Origin: Candidatus Woesearchaeota archaeon
GTDB lineage: Archaea > Nanobdellota > Nanobdellia > Woesearchaeales > GW2011-AR9
Assembly: GCA_016185625.1 (NCBI GenBank)
Contig: JACPND010000033.1
Coordinates: forward strand, 1,496 to 65,495
DNA length: 64,000 nucleotides
Reading direction: 5' to 3'
Of this stretch, positions 37,932 to 44,393 are shown piece by piece (position 1 is the first letter of the stretch; each line of letters starts with the position of its first letter). A program made the position numbers and the translations under genes. The notes below the pieces were generated by a model. It worked only from the letters and a program-made list of their open reading frames with translations. It did not search any database and was not told where the DNA came from.

Positions 37932-38159
37932 CTACCTTTCCTGTACTTTCCTCCTCACCGATTCGACGCGAGGAACCGTTTTAAACAGAAAATCGTGCCC
38001 CGATCCCTCAAATTCGACTTTGATCCAGTTCTCTTTTCCGCAGTCACAGGGGATATTCTTATAATGCTGCCCCGCATCCCAGGAAGAATTCCATTCCGCC
38101 AACTCCTTGCGGCAATACAGACATCTATTGTCTCGGAACTCATAAGGTATATGCTCCAT
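37932..38159 (-). CDS. small zinc-ribbon protein (hypothetical)
   Basis: CLYCRKE...CDCGKENW four-Cys arrangement; start at the internal Met of the 129-aa ORF. Confidence 0.35.
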   Translation of the reverse strand: MEHIPYEFRDNRCLYCRKELAEWNSSWDAGQHYKNIPCDCGKENWIKVEFEGSGHDFLFKTVPRVESVRRKVQER

Positions 38160-38205
38160 ATAGGAACAGAAACAGAGAATGTTTAAATAGGTTACGAAAT
38201 GATGA

Positions 38206-38817
38206 TTGGGCATGGAATTACTTTTAACCTCAACAGGACTGGCAAATGAAATAATCAGAGACCAATTTCTCAAACTAATTAGGAAAGCAGTTTCCACCAT
38301 CAAAGTCATCTTTATCCCCACTGCTTCCAGAACTAAAGAAAAATTAAATTACGTTCAAGAAGCAAAACAAGAACTCCTTGATCTGGGTGTTCTGCGTAAA
38401 AACATTAAAACTGTAAATCTGGATACAAAAGTAAATTACGCTGAAGTGAAAAACTATGATGTGATCTATGTTTGTGGAGGAAATACGTTCTTTTTGCTGA
38501 AAAAGGTAAGAGAGACAGGTTTTGATAAAATTATTGCCAAATTTGTCCACGAGAATAAATTATATTTTGGTGTAAGCGCCGGAAGTATTATCGTTTGTCC
38601 AAACATAGAAATAGCCAGCCTGGGAGACGAGAATGATGTTGGGCTTAAAGATTTGACGGGGCTGGGATTAGTTGATGTCGTGGTTTCTCCACAGTATAAT
38701 ATCAAAGAAAAATCGTATTTGTTTAGCATCGTAAGGTCAAAATCCCATCCCTATCAACTGCGAGAGCCGCAGGGGGACTTGCCCCATCCGGGGATGCGGC
38801 TCCAGCGATATTTATAG
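38206..38817 (+). CDS. peptidase S51 (dipeptidase E-like) class-I glutamine-amidotransferase-fold protein
   Basis: VIYVCGGNTFFLLKKVRETGFDKII...YFGVSAGSIIVCPNIE (Ser-His-Glu S51 arrangement). Confidence 0.6.
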   Translation: MGMELLLTSTGLANEIIRDQFLKLIRKAVSTIKVIFIPTASRTKEKLNYVQEAKQELLDLGVLRKNIKTVNLDTKVNYAEVKNYDVIYVCGGNTFFLLKKVRETGFDKIIAKFVHENKLYFGVSAGSIIVCPNIEIASLGDENDVGLKDLTGLGLVDVVVSPQYNIKEKSYLFSIVRSKSHPYQLREPQGDLPHPGMRLQRYL

Positions 38818-38962
38818 ACGAGGATTTTGAAGATGCTAAACAAATACGAAAAATCAATAATTGAGAAATTCAAGCAAAAATCTAAAATACCCCTAATTAC
38901 TATAACTGATAATCAGGCTTTGCTCGTTACAGATAGTGACAAGAAATTGATGGAGGCATGAC

Positions 38963-39871
38963 ATGAAATATTACTTGACCACGCTCTTCGGCTGCCAGAT
39001 TCTGGATGAGAAACTGCAGATCATCGAAACCATCCCTCTTTCCGATTGGAGCAAGCGCGAGCAGGCAGAAGAGAAAGCCCGGAAAAAAGCCAGCCCGCTT
39101 CCTCCAGAAAAAATTCCAGAAGCTTTGGCCTTATTCAAAAATAAAAAGTATTTCCGAGACTTTTACCAGAAGAATCTGGAACTGACCAAAAAAGCGATCA
39201 AAAATGCAATCGCCGAAGATCAGTTGATTATCCAGGCCAGCGCCAATATGAATGAATTGGATAAAGTAGCGAATCTTCTCAGCAAGCGCCTGCAGGAATG
39301 GTACAGCTTATACTTCCCGGAACTGTTGGAAAAAATCAATTCGCCGGAAGGATATGCCAAACTGGTGACGGGAAAAACCAAAGCGCAATCACTTCAAGAG
39401 CTGGGATTGACAGAAACGATGGGCGCTGATCTTGATAAAATCCATGTGGATGAAATATTGCGGTTGGCTGAGCAGATAACGCAGCTCTATCATCTCCGCC
39501 GGCATCACGAAGAGTATTTGCAAAGGGTCATGCTAAAATACTGCCCTAATCTGCTGGAATTAGCCGGCGTGAGCATCGGCGCAGGATTGATCGAGTTAGG
39601 GCGAAGCTTGAAGCGCTTGGCGCTGCTGCCGGCATCAACTATCCAATTATTGGGAGCGGAGAAAGCGCTCTTTCGTCATATCACGACCGGCGCAAGAAGC
39701 CCCAAACATGGGATAATTTTTGCCCATCTTTTGGTGCAGAAAGCCAAAAACAAAGGGCGCGTGGCGAGAATATTGGCGGATAAATTGTCGTTGTGCGCGC
39801 GGCTGGATTATTTTAAAGGAGAGTTCAAGGCGAAGGAGTACAGGAAGGAATTGGAAGGGAAATTGAAATAG
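38963..39871 (+). CDS. nop5: box C/D snoRNP protein Nop5 (Nop56/58), compact form
   Basis: NOP domain (AGVSIGAGLIELGRSLKRLALLPASTIQLLGAEKALFRHITTGARSPKHGIIFAH). Confidence 0.8.
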   Translation: MKYYLTTLFGCQILDEKLQIIETIPLSDWSKREQAEEKARKKASPLPPEKIPEALALFKNKKYFRDFYQKNLELTKKAIKNAIAEDQLIIQASANMNELDKVANLLSKRLQEWYSLYFPELLEKINSPEGYAKLVTGKTKAQSLQELGLTETMGADLDKIHVDEILRLAEQITQLYHLRRHHEEYLQRVMLKYCPNLLELAGVSIGAGLIELGRSLKRLALLPASTIQLLGAEKALFRHITTGARSPKHGIIFAHLLVQKAKNKGRVARILADKLSLCARLDYFKGEFKAKEYRKELEGKLK

Positions 39872-39971
39872 TGCCCTACCTATCTTGTTCCCACCTTGGT
39901 TCACAAATACCTAAAATTAGGGAATAATCCCTAAAAATAGGGAAATATTTATAAATTATCTCCCCCCTCAG

Positions 39972-40898
39972 GTGTACATGACTAAGCTACTATCATTAAC
40001 TGCCTCCAAACTGCTTCGGGTTCTGCTGGAAAACCCTTTAAAAGAATTTAAAGAGATTGAACTCATCAACACTGCAAAAATTGGCAAAGGGGCAGGAGCA
40101 GAACACATCAAAACTCTGATTGGCGAAGGAATAGTGCTAGAGCAAAGAGTGGGAAAAGCCAGAATAGTCTCTCTCAACTTAAAATCTCTCCTCTTCTTTT
40201 TTCTTAAAAATATGCTTGACCGGCAGAAAGTAAACCTTCTTTCAAAATCAAGATTGGCAGCAGTGTCGATGTTCAAACGAGAAGTGCAACAACATACGTC
40301 CTTGCTCATTCTGTTTGGCTCTACCATCGCTGGAACAGCAACGGCTCACAGCGATATTGATATATTAGTAATAAGCAAAAGTCACTCTATAATCCACGCT
40401 GCCCGTACCAAAACAGAAGGCGCATTTGGTGAAAGATTAAATCTCCATGTTTATCGTTTGCAAGATATACGGTCGAAAATTACAGACGATCCCTTTCTCA
40501 GAAATGTCCTACTACAAGGGGTAATTTTAATGGGATACGATGCCGCCACAAACCTCTTTCACCTATTAGCAAAAAACGAAAGAAAAAATTTCCAGCGAAT
40601 AGATTATTTTAAGGAAAGAATAGCCGCAGCCAAACGCAATTATGTCCGTAAAGATTATGGCGCTGCTCAGGAAATAATAAGTCATTTACAAGAACAGCTG
40701 ATCTTCTATATATTGGCTGACCAAAAAATACCGTATCAAAGTAAAAAAGATGCTGTACAAGCAATACAAAAACTACCAGAAGGAGAATTGTTGAGTAAGG
40801 TAAAGAGAGCATCTTTAAATGAAAAGATTGATAAATTGGAGGAGTTCATAAGAGAAATGTTGATAAGAATAACCCTAGAGGAAGAATATGGATTCTAA
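39972..40898 (+). CDS. minimal nucleotidyltransferase (MNT, Pol-beta superfamily) with N-terminal wHTH and C-terminal helical extension
   Basis: LILFGSTIAGTATAHSDIDILVIS (GS..x..DxD NTase motif); 4-bp overlap with downstream HEPN gene. Confidence 0.75.
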   Translation: MYMTKLLSLTASKLLRVLLENPLKEFKEIELINTAKIGKGAGAEHIKTLIGEGIVLEQRVGKARIVSLNLKSLLFFFLKNMLDRQKVNLLSKSRLAAVSMFKREVQQHTSLLILFGSTIAGTATAHSDIDILVISKSHSIIHAARTKTEGAFGERLNLHVYRLQDIRSKITDDPFLRNVLLQGVILMGYDAATNLFHLLAKNERKNFQRIDYFKERIAAAKRNYVRKDYGAAQEIISHLQEQLIFYILADQKIPYQSKKDAVQAIQKLPEGELLSKVKRASLNEKIDKLEEFIREMLIRITLEEEYGF

Positions 40899-41271
40899 GC
40901 AGCAAATAAAGGAAGATTTAGAAAGGGCTGAAAAAGCATTGCAATCTGCAGAAAGGAATTTTGATGAGAAAGATATGTTTACTTCTGCCAATAGGCTTTT
41001 TGTGGCTTGTGAAAGCGCTATTTATGCTCTATTAAAATTAAAATACGGCTCTATTTCTATGAGCCGGGAACGGATTTTAACTAGACTAAAAGATGTCGAC
41101 GCGCACATGAAAGAAATTTATGACCTAAGTTATGATTTGCGGGTACAGGCGGATTATGGAAGGCAATCAAAAATAAAGCCTTTGACAGAGCAGAATGTGA
41201 AATTTATTTTAAATGAAGTCACTCAAATTATCCAAAAGGTTAAAGATATCATTGAAACATCAATGCCATGA
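40888..41271 (+). CDS. HEPN-domain protein (putative RNase toxin partner of MNT)
   Basis: All-helical 127 aa; R-x6-H motif RLKDVDAH in the expected C-terminal third. Confidence 0.65.
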   Translation: MDSKQQIKEDLERAEKALQSAERNFDEKDMFTSANRLFVACESAIYALLKLKYGSISMSRERILTRLKDVDAHMKEIYDLSYDLRVQADYGRQSKIKPLTEQNVKFILNEVTQIIQKVKDIIETSMP

Positions 41272-41939
41272 TCAAAATAACCACCCACAAGATCTTTGAA
41301 CTCTACACCGATGGAAAGAGATTGTACACCAAAAGCATCCTGCCAGGGAAAGCGCATTTTGAAGAGCGCTTGATTCATCAGGGCATGGATGAATACCGTG
41401 AATTCGATCCGCGGCGCAGCAAACTGGCCGCAACGATCATGAAAGGCTGTACCAATGCCGGAATCCGGAAGAACGATGTGGTATTATATCTGGGCGTGTC
41501 ACATGGATATACGGCATCATTTGTTTCAGACATCGTGGGAAAAGATGGATTGATATTCGGCATCGATCCGGCGTTCCGCGTGATGCGCGATTTAATCTTT
41601 CTTTCTGCCCATCGCCAGAACCTTGTGCCGCTCTTGGCAGACGCTAACCATCCGGAAGAGTATGCCGGAAGAGTCTGTCAGGCAGATGTTGTCTATCAGG
41701 ATATTTCCCAGCGCAATCAGGCAGATATTTTCATCCGTAACTGTACGATGTTCCTGAAGAAAGGCGGTTATGGATTATTGGCCGTCAAAGCGAGAAGCAT
41801 TGACATCAGGCGCAAGCCGCGACAGATATTTGAAGAAGTGCGGAAGATGCTGGAAAAGGAATTCACCGTGATTGATTTTCGGATTTTAGAACCGTATGAG
41901 AAGGATCATTGCATGATTATTGTGAAGAAAGGGAATTGA
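41268..41939 (+). CDS. flpA: fibrillarin, rRNA/tRNA 2'-O-methyltransferase
   Basis: LYLGVSHGYTASFVSDIVG (SAM motif I), full fibrillarin collinearity. Confidence 0.9.
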   Translation: MIKITTHKIFELYTDGKRLYTKSILPGKAHFEERLIHQGMDEYREFDPRRSKLAATIMKGCTNAGIRKNDVVLYLGVSHGYTASFVSDIVGKDGLIFGIDPAFRVMRDLIFLSAHRQNLVPLLADANHPEEYAGRVCQADVVYQDISQRNQADIFIRNCTMFLKKGGYGLLAVKARSIDIRRKPRQIFEEVRKMLEKEFTVIDFRILEPYEKDHCMIIVKKGN

Positions 41940-42029
41940 GTGGCAGATAAATTTATGAGCTATTTTTGGTATAAAATGCAGAATATTTATACTGAATCTT
42001 TATAAACTATTACTTATTTCTTTGTTATC

Positions 42030-42518
42030 ATGGTTGATAGTGATGTCCAACGTGCGTATGATCAAGTGAAATTTACCCTGTTTGATAAAAGTGGGGGGCT
42101 CATTCCAAAAATAGAGAGTGAACGCTGGAGAAAAATAAAAGTGCGAGATGTTCTTAGCGGATTTGAGAATGTGGACGAAAACCTAACGATGCTCTTTAAG
42201 GAAGTAGAGAAAGTGTGGGTAAAGGTGGAGGCTGAAGCTAAAAGGACCAGAAAGGTACTAAGCCTTAAAGGAACACGAAACACCTTGGCCGAGGTGGAAG
42301 TAAGAATCAAAGGGATCAGAAACGCATTGGAACAGTCGAAGAAGATAGTGGAACGCTATGATGTTTCACAACCTTATTCTTATATGAAGGATGTAGCTTT
42401 GGTAAATACAAAGCACCAACCCGAGGAACTCTTTCCGGCTGCCGCTCATTGGACGAGGAATCATTTTCCCTATATTTACACCGCCTTGCAGCAAGCGAAC
42501 TTGATCAAGAGAGAATAA
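42030..42518 (+). CDS. hypothetical protein (162 aa)
   Basis: ORF track with AT-rich promoter-like region upstream; no motif. Confidence 0.35.
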   Translation: MVDSDVQRAYDQVKFTLFDKSGGLIPKIESERWRKIKVRDVLSGFENVDENLTMLFKEVEKVWVKVEAEAKRTRKVLSLKGTRNTLAEVEVRIKGIRNALEQSKKIVERYDVSQPYSYMKDVALVNTKHQPEELFPAAAHWTRNHFPYIYTALQQANLIKRE

Positions 42519-42566
42519 ATTCTTTTGCAGTAAACCTTTTTATACTTCATCGTTTTAATCTGATGC

Positions 42567-42830
42567 ATGACCCTCGTCAACGAAGCAGCCTATATCTACG
42601 TCTACTCCAAGAAACTGCGCTCCTTGCACGGTGATGTTATAGACCTACAGAAAGATGCTAGGGGATATCACGAGAAATTTATTTCCACCAAAAACGAAAA
42701 ATTCAAACAAAAATATGATTATGCCCTAAAAAAGATGAAAGAACGCCTGCAGGAATATCATGTGGTTTTAGCGAAAATCAACCATCATCAGATCGCCTTT
42801 GCCGGACAGTTGCAGAAGATGAGGGTGTGA
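42567..42830 (+). CDS. hypothetical coiled-coil protein (87 aa)
   Basis: ORF track; overlaps next gene by ATGA. Confidence 0.3.
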   Translation: MTLVNEAAYIYVYSKKLRSLHGDVIDLQKDARGYHEKFISTKNEKFKQKYDYALKKMKERLQEYHVVLAKINHHQIAFAGQLQKMRV

Positions 42831-43087
42831 TGAAAAAGAAAGAGAGCATCATACCAGAACTAACGCTTGGAAAATACCGGCATTACAAAGGCCATTTCTA
42901 CGAAGTCGTCGGTGTCGCCCGGCACAGCGAAACACGGGAAGAATTGGTTGTTTATCGCGCTCTGCATGATTCTACAGAATTCGGAAAAAAGGCGTCATGG
43001 GTCAGGCCGAAAGCCATGTTTTTAGAGAGAGTGGTGGTGGATGGCAAAGAAGTTCCTCGTTTTACGTATGTGGAATTGGTCAAGTAA
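42827..43087 (+). CDS. DUF1653-family protein
   Basis: GKYRHYKGHFYEVVGVARHSETREELVVYRALHD...WVRPKAMFLE matches DUF1653 signature. Confidence 0.6.
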   Translation: MMKKKESIIPELTLGKYRHYKGHFYEVVGVARHSETREELVVYRALHDSTEFGKKASWVRPKAMFLERVVVDGKEVPRFTYVELVK

Positions 43088-43112
43088 AAAAAACTTACAT
43101 TTGAAAAATCAT

Positions 43113-43346
43113 TTATTCCTTCTTCTTTATCTGTATAATACTCACCGGACAGACATCTGCCGCTTCCTGATTTGATGCACGTTCAGCTTCCGTCTCAATA
43201 TCCCGTTCCCAATGGTCATCGACCTGTTTTGCGCCTTTGAGCTGCGCCAATCCCTGCTCTTCCATCTCCCAGAAATCAGGAGAGACGGCTGCACACGCGC
43301 CGCAGCTGATACAGTCTTTCTTAATGTGAACAATTGTGTGTGTCAT
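43113..43346 (-). CDS. small single-cluster 4Fe-4S ferredoxin
   Basis: CISCGACAAVSP ... CPVSII (Fer4_13-like). Confidence 0.7.
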   Translation of the reverse strand: MTHTIVHIKKDCISCGACAAVSPDFWEMEEQGLAQLKGAKQVDDHWERDIETEAERASNQEAADVCPVSIIQIKKKE

Positions 43347-43445
43347 CAGTACTGCGAAAAGTGGCAGATTTATAAGATTTGTGCAGGAGGCGGACCAACT
43401 CTCCCCACCAAAAAGCTTATATAAACAGTTTTATTTATCTCCATC

Positions 43446-44393
43446 ATGAAAAAGAGAGGATTGTTTTTACTGTTAGCGGTAGTTCTTATTCTCCTTGTTT
43501 CCTGCCAGCGCGTGCCGCAAGGACAGCAGCCACTGGAAACCGCCGCCGCATTAAAACTGGTCCAATCTGGCACGCAGGGTGTGGAAATTTTGACGCTCGC
43601 TAATTATCCTCCTGCTTTGGTCTACGATCAAAATGAGTTAGTGACCATCGTCGAAGTCAAAAACAAAGGCAACCATGATCTTACTCAGCAGGACTGTTTC
43701 GTGCAGATAACTGGCTTCGACCCCAACATCATCCGCGGCGGATTTAACATCCCCCGTTCCTGTGCAGAAAATGTCAATATCTTGGAAGGAAAAAATGTCT
43801 ACAATGTCGAAGGGAGCTCCAATCAACTGGAATTCCGTGCTCCGACGGTGAACTTACCGTCCGGCGTGTTTGAATACAATCCGGTATTGAATTTTGTTAC
43901 CTGTTATAATTATCATACTACGGCCAGCCCTTCGGTCTGCGTCGATCCTTTATTTTATCAAGTGACTTCACAGCAAAAGACCTGTCTGCCTCATAATGTG
44001 GGTACGGGCGGCGGCCAGGGCGCTCCGGTGGGTATCAGTTATGTTGGCGTGAACATGGTCGGCAGCAAAGCCATTTTTGAACTGAATGTCGTTAATTATG
44101 GAACGGGACGTGTCCTGAGTCCGTATGCCGGCATCCAGAACTGCGGTGAAGCTTCAGTATCGTATACTGACCTCGATAAAGTAGGATATAAAGTCCAGTT
44201 GAGCGGCGGAAGCCTGATCGACTGCAAGCCGAGAGACGGCTTTGTCCGCTTAGTGAACAACCAGGGAAAGATTGTCTGCCAGTTCAGCATTCCCGGCGCC
44301 TCGGCTTACGAAACGCCTTTGTTAGTTGATTTGGATTACAGCTATATCCAATCATATCAGAAGCCGGTGAAGATTATCAAGACACCGGAGTAA
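43446..44393 (+). CDS. secreted Cys-containing lipoprotein (hypothetical)
   Basis: Signal peptide with LVSC lipobox; ~10 Cys, beta-rich. Confidence 0.45.
   Translation: MKKRGLFLLLAVVLILLVSCQRVPQGQQPLETAAALKLVQSGTQGVEILTLANYPPALVYDQNELVTIVEVKNKGNHDLTQQDCFVQITGFDPNIIRGGFNIPRSCAENVNILEGKNVYNVEGSSNQLEFRAPTVNLPSGVFEYNPVLNFVTCYNYHTTASPSVCVDPLFYQVTSQQKTCLPHNVGTGGGQGAPVGISYVGVNMVGSKAIFELNVVNYGTGRVLSPYAGIQNCGEASVSYTDLDKVGYKVQLSGGSLIDCKPRDGFVRLVNNQGKIVCQFSIPGASAYETPLLVDLDYSYIQSYQKPVKIIKTPE

Follow-up and report, generated by a model that had tools for sequence, protein, structure and literature searches.

A predicted toxin-antitoxin-type MNT-HEPN module with its own putative operator in the variable slot between nop5 and flpA of Woesearchaeota

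Genes and putative promoter elements between nop5 and flpA

The DNA analysed here, in the following referred to as the window, is a stretch of 64,000 nucleotides from a Candidatus Woesearchaeota archaeon in which nop5 does not immediately precede flpA, the two being separated by an interval of 1,396 nt that accommodates two further genes. The upstream flank is formed by the conserved nop5 gene (38963–39871, + strand), which encodes a 302-aa aNOP56/Nop5 protein (PF01798 Nop, E = 2e-51, 175 bits); the NCBIfam aNOP56 model scores 248 bits with this protein, below its cut-off of 452, and the match begins at model position 101. The conserved downstream flank is flpA (41268–41939, + strand), coding for a fibrillarin of 223 aa (PF01269, E = 8e-73, 245 bits; NCBIfam NF003276, 249 bits with a cut-off of 113). 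Between them lie the gene of a long minimal nucleotidyltransferase (MNT; 39978–40898, + strand; 306 aa), the predicted antitoxin and regulator, and that of a 127-aa HEPN-T protein (40888–41271, + strand; PF05168, called UPF0332 in some sources), the predicted toxin and AMPylation target. The initial annotation of this DNA had placed all four genes on the same strand, with an overlap of 11 nt between the nucleotidyltransferase (NTase) and HEPN genes and one of 4 nt between the HEPN gene and flpA, and the open reading frame coordinates bear this out; the latter overlap reads ATGA and joins the HEPN stop to the flpA start. It had also let the MNT begin at GTG 39972, giving 308 aa. The long NTase reading frame as such stands, its start and length do not: as the identical database protein comprises 306 aa and a TATA box is found ~26 nt upstream of ATG 39978, we prefer this codon, which is probably the true start.

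The two-gene cassette is compositionally foreign, with a GC3 of 0.31–0.34 compared to 0.55–0.57 for the flanks in the window, and the same is true of the cassette at locus L011. No RNA family, such as a box C/D sRNA, was detected with Rfam at E ≤ 1 across positions 38000–43500, and no tRNAs were found within the window.

Upstream of the MNT gene, a TATA-box-like TTTATAAA can be read from the sequence (39948–39955, + strand). It is preceded by two operator-like palindromes, to which no strand is assigned, namely TACCTAAAATTAGGGA (39908–39923), which deviates from the consensus by two mismatches in a DNA pattern search, and TCCCTAAAAATAGGGA (39928–39943), which matches it exactly and ends 4 bp before the TATA box. 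In whatever context they occur, family members are preceded by two to three such tandem palindromes (consensus TTCCCTAAAAATAGGGAA; 16–18 bp) that abut the TATA box. Nearly all family members have a counterpart of the first palindrome, at about −70 relative to the ATG; the second site, at about −51, is kept irrespective of context, even at protein identities as low as 32%, and a TATA box of the form TTTATAAA or TTTAAATA lies at about −31 upstream of all of them. Of the 55 palindrome sites in 998 kb of retrieved DNA, 52 are followed by a long-MNT gene at a distance of at most 140 nt, while the remaining three precede truncated copies; the architecture is essentially exclusive to this gene. We read the tandem palindromes and the TATA box as a putative autoregulated promoter with a predicted operator, to which the winged helix-turn-helix (wHTH) domain of the MNT would bind, as their co-conservation suggests. 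The resulting transcript would be near-leaderless.

The long nucleotidyltransferase and its HEPN partner

The architecture first proposed for the MNT, a wHTH followed by a GS...DxD nucleotidyltransferase and a helical tail, is upheld both by the alignment and by the AlphaFold model (pLDDT 88.9). The wHTH (aa 7–66), the best-conserved portion of the alignment, is connected by linker helices (aa 71–106) to a pol-beta NTase core (aa 107–185), and the C-terminal tail (aa 205–304) is a degenerate HEPN-like domain of five helices. In Pfam, the protein matches NTP_transf_2 (PF01909) with 32.2 bits (cut-off 21) and Polbeta with 30.1 bits (cut-off 26.9). Its NTase motif reads G114-S115-x10-D126-x-D128, and the four named residues are invariant across 45 aligned sequences, S115 and D126 being separated by exactly 10 residues. 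The check whether the additional domains recur in other genomes was run, and the unusual length noted initially turned out to mark a distinct, recurrent three-domain family. The best PDB sequence matches of the core are MntA antitoxins (5yep, 9xbd), and the MntA equivalog model (NCBIfam NF047752) reaches 31.3 bits, which is under its curated cut-off of 60. A further resemblance is to component A of PDC-M05, a candidate defence system in PADLOC: PDC-M05A matches the wHTH and NTase part (aa 3–186) at E = 2.8e-20. Its profiles, however, span ~200 positions and leave the HEPN-like tail uncovered, and the HEPN partner matched no PDC-M05 model in PADLOC, where only HEPN_IX was hit, at E 0.026.

Both proteins score above the Pfam thresholds (for the HEPN protein PF05168 with 30.8 bits, cut-off 22), and their initial assignment as HEPN and NTase proteins is thereby confirmed by profile searches. 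The R-x6-H motif (R66...H73) that had been put forward as the HEPN active site has to be rejected, as position 73 is Q, E, K, S or P in relatives and as the pair sits in the insert between helices 2 and 3 and not at the end of helix 3. With this motif wrong, the label "RNase toxin" expresses an interpretation of the HEPN protein and not a reading of its sequence. There is no invariant histidine among the 43 aligned homologues and the RX4H RNase motif is absent. Invariant are R23-N24, N35-R36, C41-E42 and S81-Y-D-L-R85-V-Q-A-D89-Y90-G as well as, in the 43-sequence alignment, the tyrosines Y78, Y82 and Y90, and in the AF2 model (pLDDT 91.5) R85..Y90 lies where helix 3 ends. A Foldseek search with this model returned AF0298 (2hsb) as the top match (TM 0.78), with the solved HepT toxin structures ranking below HEPN-T structures. 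A profile search of the HEPN protein against PDB sequences gave no significant match (LmuC at E 0.026), and Pfam gave no match to PF01934 (DUF86).

At four loci (L007-9, L067, L071 and L083) the HEPN gene is broken beside an intact MNT gene, an asymmetry that carries a sampling bias as the MNT served as the entry point to most loci. Where HEPN has decayed, its final codons next to flpA persist along with the MNT and the promoter. Decay of the HEPN gene next to an intact MNT gene fits the HEPN protein being the predicted toxin.

The PF01909 MNT gene lies directly upstream of the PF05168 HEPN gene, the MNT keeps GSx10DxD, and the HEPN protein combines the lack of RX4H with a conserved tyrosine. 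This is the constellation of the Class II HEPN/MNT pairs (PF05168/PF01909), which have a conserved Tyr and a retained GSx10DxD (Yao et al., 2020, PMC7641770) and correspond to the HEPN-T/MNT pairs described by Anantharaman et al. (2013, PMC3710099). In HEPN-T proteins the motif, located where helix 3 ends, has D in place of H (PMC3710099). The likeness to Class II includes the Tyr beside an Arg/Asp site at this helix end, the AF0298 fold and the mobile, patchy distribution. In contrast to Class II, the MNT described here measures 306 aa rather than <150 aa and carries a wHTH at its N-terminus and a degenerate HEPN-like domain at its C-terminus, a conserved tandem-palindrome predicted operator abuts the TATA box, and one clade is site-locked upstream of flpA. 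With HepT/MntA the cassette shares the MNT-first two-gene order, the GSx10DxD adenylyltransferase motif and, in the mechanism proposed below, neutralisation through a tyrosine that lies next to the HEPN active site and is AMPylated. It differs in that the HEPN protein belongs to PF05168 and not to DUF86/PF01934 (or PF08780), that RX4HXY is absent and that the wHTH and a predicted operator are built in, whereas MntA has no DNA-binding domain; autoregulation of MntA is not described in the 2020 paper. As to the tail, HEPN domains fused to an MNT are inactive (PMC3710099). In FhepTA (PMC13000451) the fused HEPN domain is the active toxin, and the tail of the long MNT differs from it in lacking the R..DY motif of the HEPN partner.

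Distribution of the cassette and probable exchange of its alleles

According to the initial annotation, nop5 and flpA are normally adjacent. This does not hold for the present lineage: among 47 species-representative relatives the two genes are contiguous in 15, separated by a short non-coding gap in 3 and by at least one gene in 29. The interval is hence a general variable slot in Woesearchaeota, occupied in ~60% of species, and its other occupants include CYTH, MazG and NUDIX proteins. The flpA-anchored survey found the cassette itself in the slot in one of the 47. That relatives universally carry the insertion, a possibility considered at the outset, is thus not the case, as most are without it.

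Within the long-MNT family, one clade (198/200 bootstrap, 99%; neighbour-joining, 200 replicates) is found directly upstream of flpA in at least nine distinct genomes, whose fibrillarins are 69–76% identical to that of the window. The overlap of HEPN stop and flpA start is usual among these loci, and flpA linkage, predicted blind in three cases, held true in two. The order MNT, then HEPN is observed at essentially every locus having downstream DNA. The cassette also occurs upstream of nop5 (locus L001) and at another genome site (locus L092), while distant paralogues neighbour PemK, VapB, HepT/MntA and AbiEii genes in toxin-antitoxin or defence islands. The family is restricted to metagenome-assembled genomes of Woesearchaeota and Nanoarchaeia (DPANN), with HEPN relatives in Methanoperedens; no relatives of the cassette were found in viruses in IMG/VR. 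A literature search retrieved no publication that combines HEPN, MNT and fibrillarin or that deals with the nop5-flpA gene order in these archaea.

Cassettes and hosts diverge discordantly, and they do so in both directions. The loci L010, L028 and L012 have fibrillarins that are 95–97% and Nop5 proteins that are 90–94% identical, but MNTs that share 51–57%; L010 and L001, in turn, have MNTs that are 81% identical, but fibrillarins that share 73%. At the DNA level, close relatives are ~90% identical in the flanks and 45–65% in the cassette, with breakpoints at gene boundaries: identity amounts to 85–95% up to the nop5 stop codon and jumps from ~50% to ~90% exactly at the HEPN/flpA junction. 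Since close hosts carry diverged cassettes and the flanks show sharp breakpoints, we conclude that alleles are exchanged at the variable slot. Judging by sequence, the phylogeny of the cassette is decoupled from that of its host, host relatedness being measured here by pairwise identities and not by host-tree topology. Very fast evolution of the cassette could in principle add to the discordance, but would not explain MNTs that are 81% identical in distant hosts.

The cassette had initially been described as a mobile module captured in the operon. Part of this stands, namely that it is a mobile toxin-antitoxin-type MNT-HEPN pair of foreign composition, with mobility indicated by the patchy occurrence (1/47), the GC3 contrast, the host-decoupled phylogeny and the paralogues among toxin-antitoxin genes. 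A one-off capture does not, as the cassette recurs in at least nine genomes. Because a dedicated branch recurs at the slot and is swapped between genomes, the module represents neither an isolated insertion event nor a permanent component of the operon.

Proposed function and alternatives

From our point of view, it is reasonably probable that the cassette represents an autonomous, self-regulated Class II MNT-HEPN toxin-antitoxin-type module of a small DPANN family that resides in the variable nop5-flpA slot. A wHTH dimer would bind the palindromes and repress the cassette promoter, the NTase would AMPylate a conserved HEPN tyrosine, for which Y90 beside R85/D89 is the candidate, and the HEPN-like tail of the MNT may dock onto the HEPN partner. 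AMPylation and docking together would then neutralise a growth-inhibiting, RNA-directed activity of the free HEPN protein. Alleles are presumably exchanged between lineages by homologous recombination via the conserved nop5 and flpA flanks. Given the overlap of the HEPN stop with the flpA start, transcription of flpA might at least partly begin at the cassette promoter and its translation be coupled to the cassette, which would make a clean loss of the cassette harder.

A different explanation would be that the pair is a split nucleotidyltransferase for small molecules or proteins, like the kanamycin and lincosamide enzymes, instead of a toxin-antitoxin system. The HEPN protein and the tail would then bind the substrate (an antibiotic, a metabolite or a protein) and the wHTH would provide induction by it. 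An NTase followed by a C-terminal helical (HEPN-derived) domain is indeed the fold of KNTase ANT(4') and LinB (ANT/Lnu), but membership at the sequence level is missing, as the NCBIfam ANT models score 12–19 bits against cut-offs of 193–550 and match the NTase N-terminus alone; the wHTH and the separate conserved HEPN gene are extra in comparison to the ANT families. In addition, the sequence matches among solved structures are MntA antitoxins, the order of MNT first and HEPN second is that of toxin-antitoxin pairs, and the gene neighbours belong to such systems. Decay of HEPN only would also wreck a two-subunit enzyme, yet the MNT remains intact. We hence regard a split enzyme as improbable.

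One could also speculate that the pair has been domesticated as a box C/D accessory, with the wHTH-NTase regulating flpA, or with nucleotidylation, RNA binding or processing by the two proteins directed at fibrillarin, Nop5, guide sRNAs or rRNA, and that this function ties the pair to flpA. The lasting adjacency to flpA in a well-supported clade, across genomes with 69–76% fibrillarin identity and with the usual stop/start overlap, could mirror such a functional link. HEPN is about as conserved as fibrillarin (64–78% versus 69–76% identity), its decay leaves the MNT, the promoter and the last HEPN codons next to flpA, and other slot occupants (CYTH, MazG, NUDIX) are likewise nucleotide-handling enzymes. 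However, close relatives with contiguous nop5-flpA do without the cassette, the same promoter and operator precede paralogues unconnected to flpA, and the cassette is also located upstream of nop5 and elsewhere in the genome. Moreover, its alleles are swapped between hosts and HEPN is dispensable at four loci, and domestication therefore seems unlikely to us. Similarly doubtful is the more specific idea that the flpA-linked clade constitutes a toxin-antitoxin-derived regulator, with the autoregulated promoter and the overlap as the main route of fibrillarin expression or with the pair acting on the box C/D RNP. If true, the state of the MNT-HEPN switch would set the capacity for 2'-O-methylation of rRNA and tRNA. 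An essential enzyme of RNA modification would then be controlled by a toxin-antitoxin derivative in genome-reduced DPANN archaea, a built-in dependency that would explain the persistence of the clade at one site across genera.

A single ancient insertion that became a permanent component of the operon, was passed on vertically and was lost frequently and independently would account for the monophyly of the flpA-linked MNTs and for their identical position in diverged genomes. Simple vertical inheritance with losses is, however, contradicted by the pairwise identity matrices, which are discordant in both directions, and by the sharp breakpoints that appear at the flanks when hosts with ~90% DNA identity are compared. 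The foreign composition in the window and at L011 argues against it as well, as does the search for operator remnants (deletion scars) in cassette-free nop5-flpA intervals, which found none. We consider this reading largely refuted and very doubtful. That a mobile toxin-antitoxin module was captured recently and only once, at a chance site lying between nop5 and flpA, would agree with the foreign composition in the window and with the lack of the cassette in the closest species representatives, but is refuted by the recurrence of the same clade at the same site in at least nine genomes, with the slot occupied in 29 of 47 relatives, and is highly improbable.

If the cassette is the self-regulated Class II module that we favour, its three-domain MNT would regulate its own transcription as in type II systems and neutralise its partner enzymatically as in type VII systems, both of which are predictions. 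For Class II pairs, neither toxicity nor neutralisation nor AMPylation has been shown by experiment (PMC7641770). The family provides a tractable Class II (PF05168) example for which an operator and an AMPylation tyrosine are predicted and a series of HEPN-null alleles exists in nature, and it thus becomes directly testable whether such pairs are toxin-antitoxin systems. The textbook nop5-flpA pair turns out to be a variable slot whose conserved, essential flanks would act as recombination anchors, in parallel to bacterial defence-island hotspots, but here in genome-reduced archaea. A mobile module with its own promoter just upstream of, and coupled to, an essential gene may further illustrate a plausible route by which selfish elements persist. 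A related situation is known from Thermus thermophilus HB8, where an MNT-HEPN module that is absent from strain HB27 lies inside the lysine-biosynthesis operon (Makarova et al., 2009, PMC2701414). In both cases the pair interrupts a housekeeping operon and some relatives have it while others lack it; in Thermus, however, it represents a strain-specific single event, whereas the flpA-linked clade is found repeatedly at one slot in many genera, and its alleles are replaced.

The HEPN/MNT pair between nop5 and flpA

The genes nop5 (38963-39871), the long NTase gene (39972-40898), the HEPN gene (40888-41271) and flpA (41268-41939) all lie on the + strand exactly where the initial annotation had placed them, and its four assignments are upheld by Pfam scores above the gathering threshold, namely 175 bits for Nop (PF01798), 32.2 bits for NTP_transf_2 (PF01909; cut-off 21) and 30.1 bits for Polbeta (PF18765; cut-off 26.9), 30.8 bits for HEPN (PF05168; cut-off 22) and 245 bits for fibrillarin (PF01269). 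The NTase gene shares 11 nt with the HEPN gene, which in turn shares 4 nt (ATGA) with flpA. The likelier NTase start is ATG 39978 rather than GTG 39972. A Candidatus Woesearchaeota MAG has an identical protein of 306 aa in its annotation, which puts the window in a DPANN archaeon. The NTase core reaches 31 bits against the NCBIfam MntA equivalog model, under its cut-off of 60, and residues 3-186 match the PADLOC candidate-defence model PDC-M05A (E = 2.8e-20).

Together with about 49 full-length homologues (295-315 aa, 32-67% identity) in Woesearchaeota and 'Nanoarchaeota' MAGs, the long NTase forms a compact family. E ≤ 1e-30 was reached by only 21 of 1.84 billion library representatives, followed after a gap by several hundred shorter (~200 aa) wHTH-NTase proteins. 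In the AlphaFold model (pLDDT 88.9), residues 7-66 fold into a wHTH, which two linker helices join to the NTase core (residues 107-185); a five-helix tail (residues 205-304) follows. Conservation in a 45-sequence alignment is highest in the N-terminal wHTH, and G114, S115, D126 and D128, an exact GSx10DxD, are invariant. The tail (40590-40889) keeps only the first HEPN-type polar cluster (R..N221-Y222...D226); the window HEPN has two invariant ones, of which R23-N24...D29 sits in the helix-1/2 turn and R85...D89-Y90 where helix 3 ends.

For the HEPN partner at least 94 homologues were found, part of them labelled 'UPF0332'. No histidine is invariant in a 43-sequence alignment, and the R66-x6-H73 motif proposed in the initial annotation does not hold up, H73 being replaced by Q, E, K, S or P in relatives. 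Invariant are D10, R13, R23, N24, T32, N35, R36, F38, C41, E42, K50, G54 and Y78 as well as the block S81-Y-D-L-R85-V-Q-A-D89-Y90-G. The model (pLDDT 91.5, pTM 0.86) places R85…Y90 at the helix-3 end and into the loop before helix 4; since HEPN active-site motifs reside where helix 3 ends (PMC3710099), this Arg/Asp/Tyr cluster occupies the canonical active-site position. The best Foldseek match of the model is AF0298 (TM 0.78), followed by other HEPN-T structures, with characterised HepT toxins ranking below these.

Few mobile two-gene modules in archaea are as abundant as MNT-HEPN modules. As at nop5-flpA, such a module is also inserted into a housekeeping operon, that for lysine, in Thermus thermophilus HB8 (PMC2701414), and given this abundance and precedent the cassette is not a new kind of system. 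Judged from its sequence, it is a Class II pair in the scheme of Yao et al. (2020; PMC7641770), because PF05168 and PF01909 occur together with a retained GSx10DxD, a conserved tyrosine and no RX4H; the same authors explicitly call the toxin-antitoxin status of Class II not validated. New are the three-domain wHTH–NTase–pseudoHEPN protein in the antitoxin position, the conserved, predicted operator of tandem palindromes, a well-supported clade that, across genera, keeps to one chromosomal slot beside an essential gene while its alleles are exchanged, and the interruption of the nop5–flpA pair in most Woesearchaeota. We found no published link between HEPN/MNT and fibrillarin, nor any description of this gene order.

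Predicted operator, proposed mechanism and HEPN decay

The 100-nt spacer 3' of nop5 contains two palindromes not noticed previously, TACCTAAAATTAGGGA (39908-39923) and TCCCTAAAAATAGGGA (39928-39943), and a TATA box, TTTATAAA (39948-39955), about 26 nt upstream of ATG 39978. Upstream of every long-NTase member examined stand two or three copies of TTCCCTAAAAATAGGGAA with a spacing of about 20 bp (roughly −71 and −51), abutting the TATA box at roughly −31; this layout is independent of genomic context and persists at protein identities as low as 32%. The fetched DNA (998 kb) contains 55 copies of the palindrome at ≤2 mismatches, 52 of them no more than 140 nt upstream of a long-NTase gene; the remaining three are upstream of NTase copies truncated by contig ends or the analysis filter. 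Since this arrangement is both conserved and specific to long-NTase genes, the cassette is an autonomous transcription unit with a private, predicted operator. The co-conservation suggests that the wHTH binds the palindromes, and their placement against the BRE/TATA region points to a repressor site.

From our point of view, the locus is probably best explained by a composite of structure, genomics and toxin-antitoxin biochemistry, the first two being much more secure than the last. The wHTH would repress the cassette promoter, and the NTase would AMPylate a tyrosine of the HEPN, for which Y90 is the best candidate owing to its analogy with HepT Y104 (PMC7641770) and a prediction in PMC3710099. 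The HEPN-like NTase tail may dock onto the HEPN, by analogy with the dimerisation control of fused MNT-HEPN proteins (PMC13000451), and free HEPN, without the histidine, would inhibit growth through RNA. Finally, flpA would share the transcript that starts at the cassette promoter, and its translation would be coupled to that of the HEPN gene.

In four sets of loci (L007-9, L067, L071 and L083) the HEPN gene is pseudogenised and the NTase ORF intact, which corresponds to at least three independent losses. L007-9 and L067 carry internal frameshifting deletions that both start after codon 24 and spare the final codons together with the flpA junction (ATGA); L071 has an internal deletion, and L083 an insertion or frameshift plus D89N. 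An intact HEPN beside a broken NTase was not seen among the loci examined, and because most of these were retrieved through the NTase, the HEPN-first asymmetry is suggestive rather than proven, as is its argument against the older idea of the HEPN as antitoxin. The pseudogenes at L007 4272-4391 and L067 4693-4914 share the deletion start codon (after ...SAERN) and have similar remnants, but the adjoining NTase genes are only 49% identical, a possible sign that recombination broke within the cassette and brought a different NTase to an old HEPN remnant.

A variable slot with exchangeable alleles

A fibrillarin-anchored scan with one genome per species yielded 51 loci, nearly all from Woesearchaeota/Nanoarchaeia MAGs (fibrillarin 43-77% identical), 47 of which hold both nop5 and flpA. 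Contrary to the initial expectation that the two genes are normally adjacent, other genes split them in 29 of the 47; they are contiguous (gap ≤ 91 nt) in 15 and separated by a 207-225-nt non-coding gap in three, and the cassette occupies the slot in only one (L028). Pfam assigns the recurring occupants to CYTH (12 loci), MazG (8) and NUDIX (3-4); in addition, the interval holds a pentapeptide-repeat protein, in 6 loci a membrane protein of 125 aa, and several proteins of no named family. Whichever gene precedes flpA usually abuts or overlaps its start. These counts make nop5–flpA a lineage-wide variable slot with the cassette as one patchy occupant. Most occupants are nucleotide-phosphohydrolase-type enzymes, and CYTH and MazG often co-occur; examples of occupied intervals are L011 1444-2396, L021 7144-8023 and L014 7492-8004.

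Among related loci, the order Nop–MNT–HEPN–Fib is found in L010/L065 and L093, Nop–210 aa–MNT–HEPN–Fib in L028/L068/L069, Nop–209 aa–242 aa–MNT–HEPN–Fib in L012/L013, Nop–CYTH–MazG–MNT–HEPN–Fib in L011, Nop–…–MNT–(HEPN remnant)–Fib in L007-9 and L067, and MNT–HEPN–Fib on the contig of family member P0003; L001 instead carries the pair just upstream of nop5. Cassette-bearing genomes are only 69-76% (fibrillarin) and 52-70% (Nop5) identical to the window. All nop5/flpA-linked NTases form one clade (bootstrap 198/200; neighbour-joining, 63 family members), and every copy clearly without a nearby flpA falls outside it. Of three unexamined clade members whose context was predicted from the tree, two proved flpA-linked (P0008 and P0003); the third, P0014 (L092), did not, lying beside a helicase-nuclease gene (DEAD/ERCC4 domains) and ABC-transporter genes. 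Members outside the clade reside in toxin-antitoxin or defence neighbourhoods: L002 has two copies among PemK, reverse transcriptase, UPF0175/DUF3368 and VapB, an AbiEii gene and a short HTH-NTase gene lie ~3-4 kb downstream in L004, and others adjoin extra MNTs, a canonical MNT+HepT(DUF86) pair or an AF2212-like gene. The tandem cassettes of L002, a Woesearchaeota contig (5001-6283 and 7461-8748; 42-45% identical to that of the window), enclose the UPF0175/DUF3368 pair within a dense toxin-antitoxin island of a small DPANN genome.

The divergence of the cassette does not track that of the host, and the mismatch runs in both directions. Among L010, L028 and L012, fibrillarin is 95-97% and Nop5 90-94% identical versus 51-57% for the NTase and 60-75% for the HEPN, and among L007, L093 and L067 the values are 90-92% (fibrillarin), 80-83% (Nop5) and 49-55% (NTase); between L010 and L001, conversely, fibrillarin (73%) and Nop5 (59%) are set against NTase (81%) and HEPN (75%). 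At the DNA level, L010 shares ~85-95% identity with L028 or L012 in nop5, flpA and the genes beyond, versus 45-65% within the cassette; the changes fall at the nop5 stop and at the HEPN/flpA junction. The cassette of the window is also compositionally foreign (GC3 of 0.34 for NTase and 0.31 for HEPN versus 0.57 for nop5 and 0.55 for flpA); L011 shows a like contrast, low-GC hosts none. No viral contigs carrying cassette relatives were found. The simplest reading is a pool of diverged alleles of one clade, site-locked yet exchanged among lineages by homologous recombination via the conserved essential flanks.

One could alternatively imagine that the cassette has become a domesticated partner of the box C/D machinery, as its persistent linkage to flpA and the retention of promoter-proximal parts after HEPN loss would suggest; its patchy distribution, relocation and allele swapping, however, together with identical cis-elements in paralogues unlinked to flpA, render this unlikely. 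Pure vertical inheritance is effectively refuted by the host/cassette discordance and the DNA identity transitions at the flanks, and so is the unique recent insertion envisaged initially, as the same flpA-upstream position recurs in related loci.

Nop5 and the flanking genes

The Nop5 of the window has 302 aa; its match to the NCBIfam aNOP56 equivalog (417 positions) begins at model position 101 and scores 248 bits, below the 452-bit cut-off, which suggests that the N-terminal (fibrillarin-binding) domain is much reduced in this lineage; more distant relatives align only from about residue 45-70 of the window protein. Upstream of nop5 lies a peptidase S51 gene (dipeptidase E-like; 38206-38817, +; E = 1e-37), and a short S51-like fragment upstream of nop5 in L001 too indicates that part of the wider neighbourhood is conserved. 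A 119-aa antisense ORF (39968-40327, -) over the 5' part of the NTase gene, low-complexity and rich in cysteine and serine, most probably represents a shadow ORF cast by the AT-rich coding strand. The downstream flank encodes a DUF1653 protein (42827-43087, +; E = 1e-26) and an 87-aa ORF of no Pfam family (42567-42830, +), which is conserved (31-47% identity) from a few hundred nt to ~3.5 kb 3' of flpA in many related loci (L007, L010-L012, L017, L019, L020, L026, L027, L030 and others). In L007 its homologue directly follows a short 193-aa NTase gene, and the 87-aa ORF may be part of another small two-gene module.
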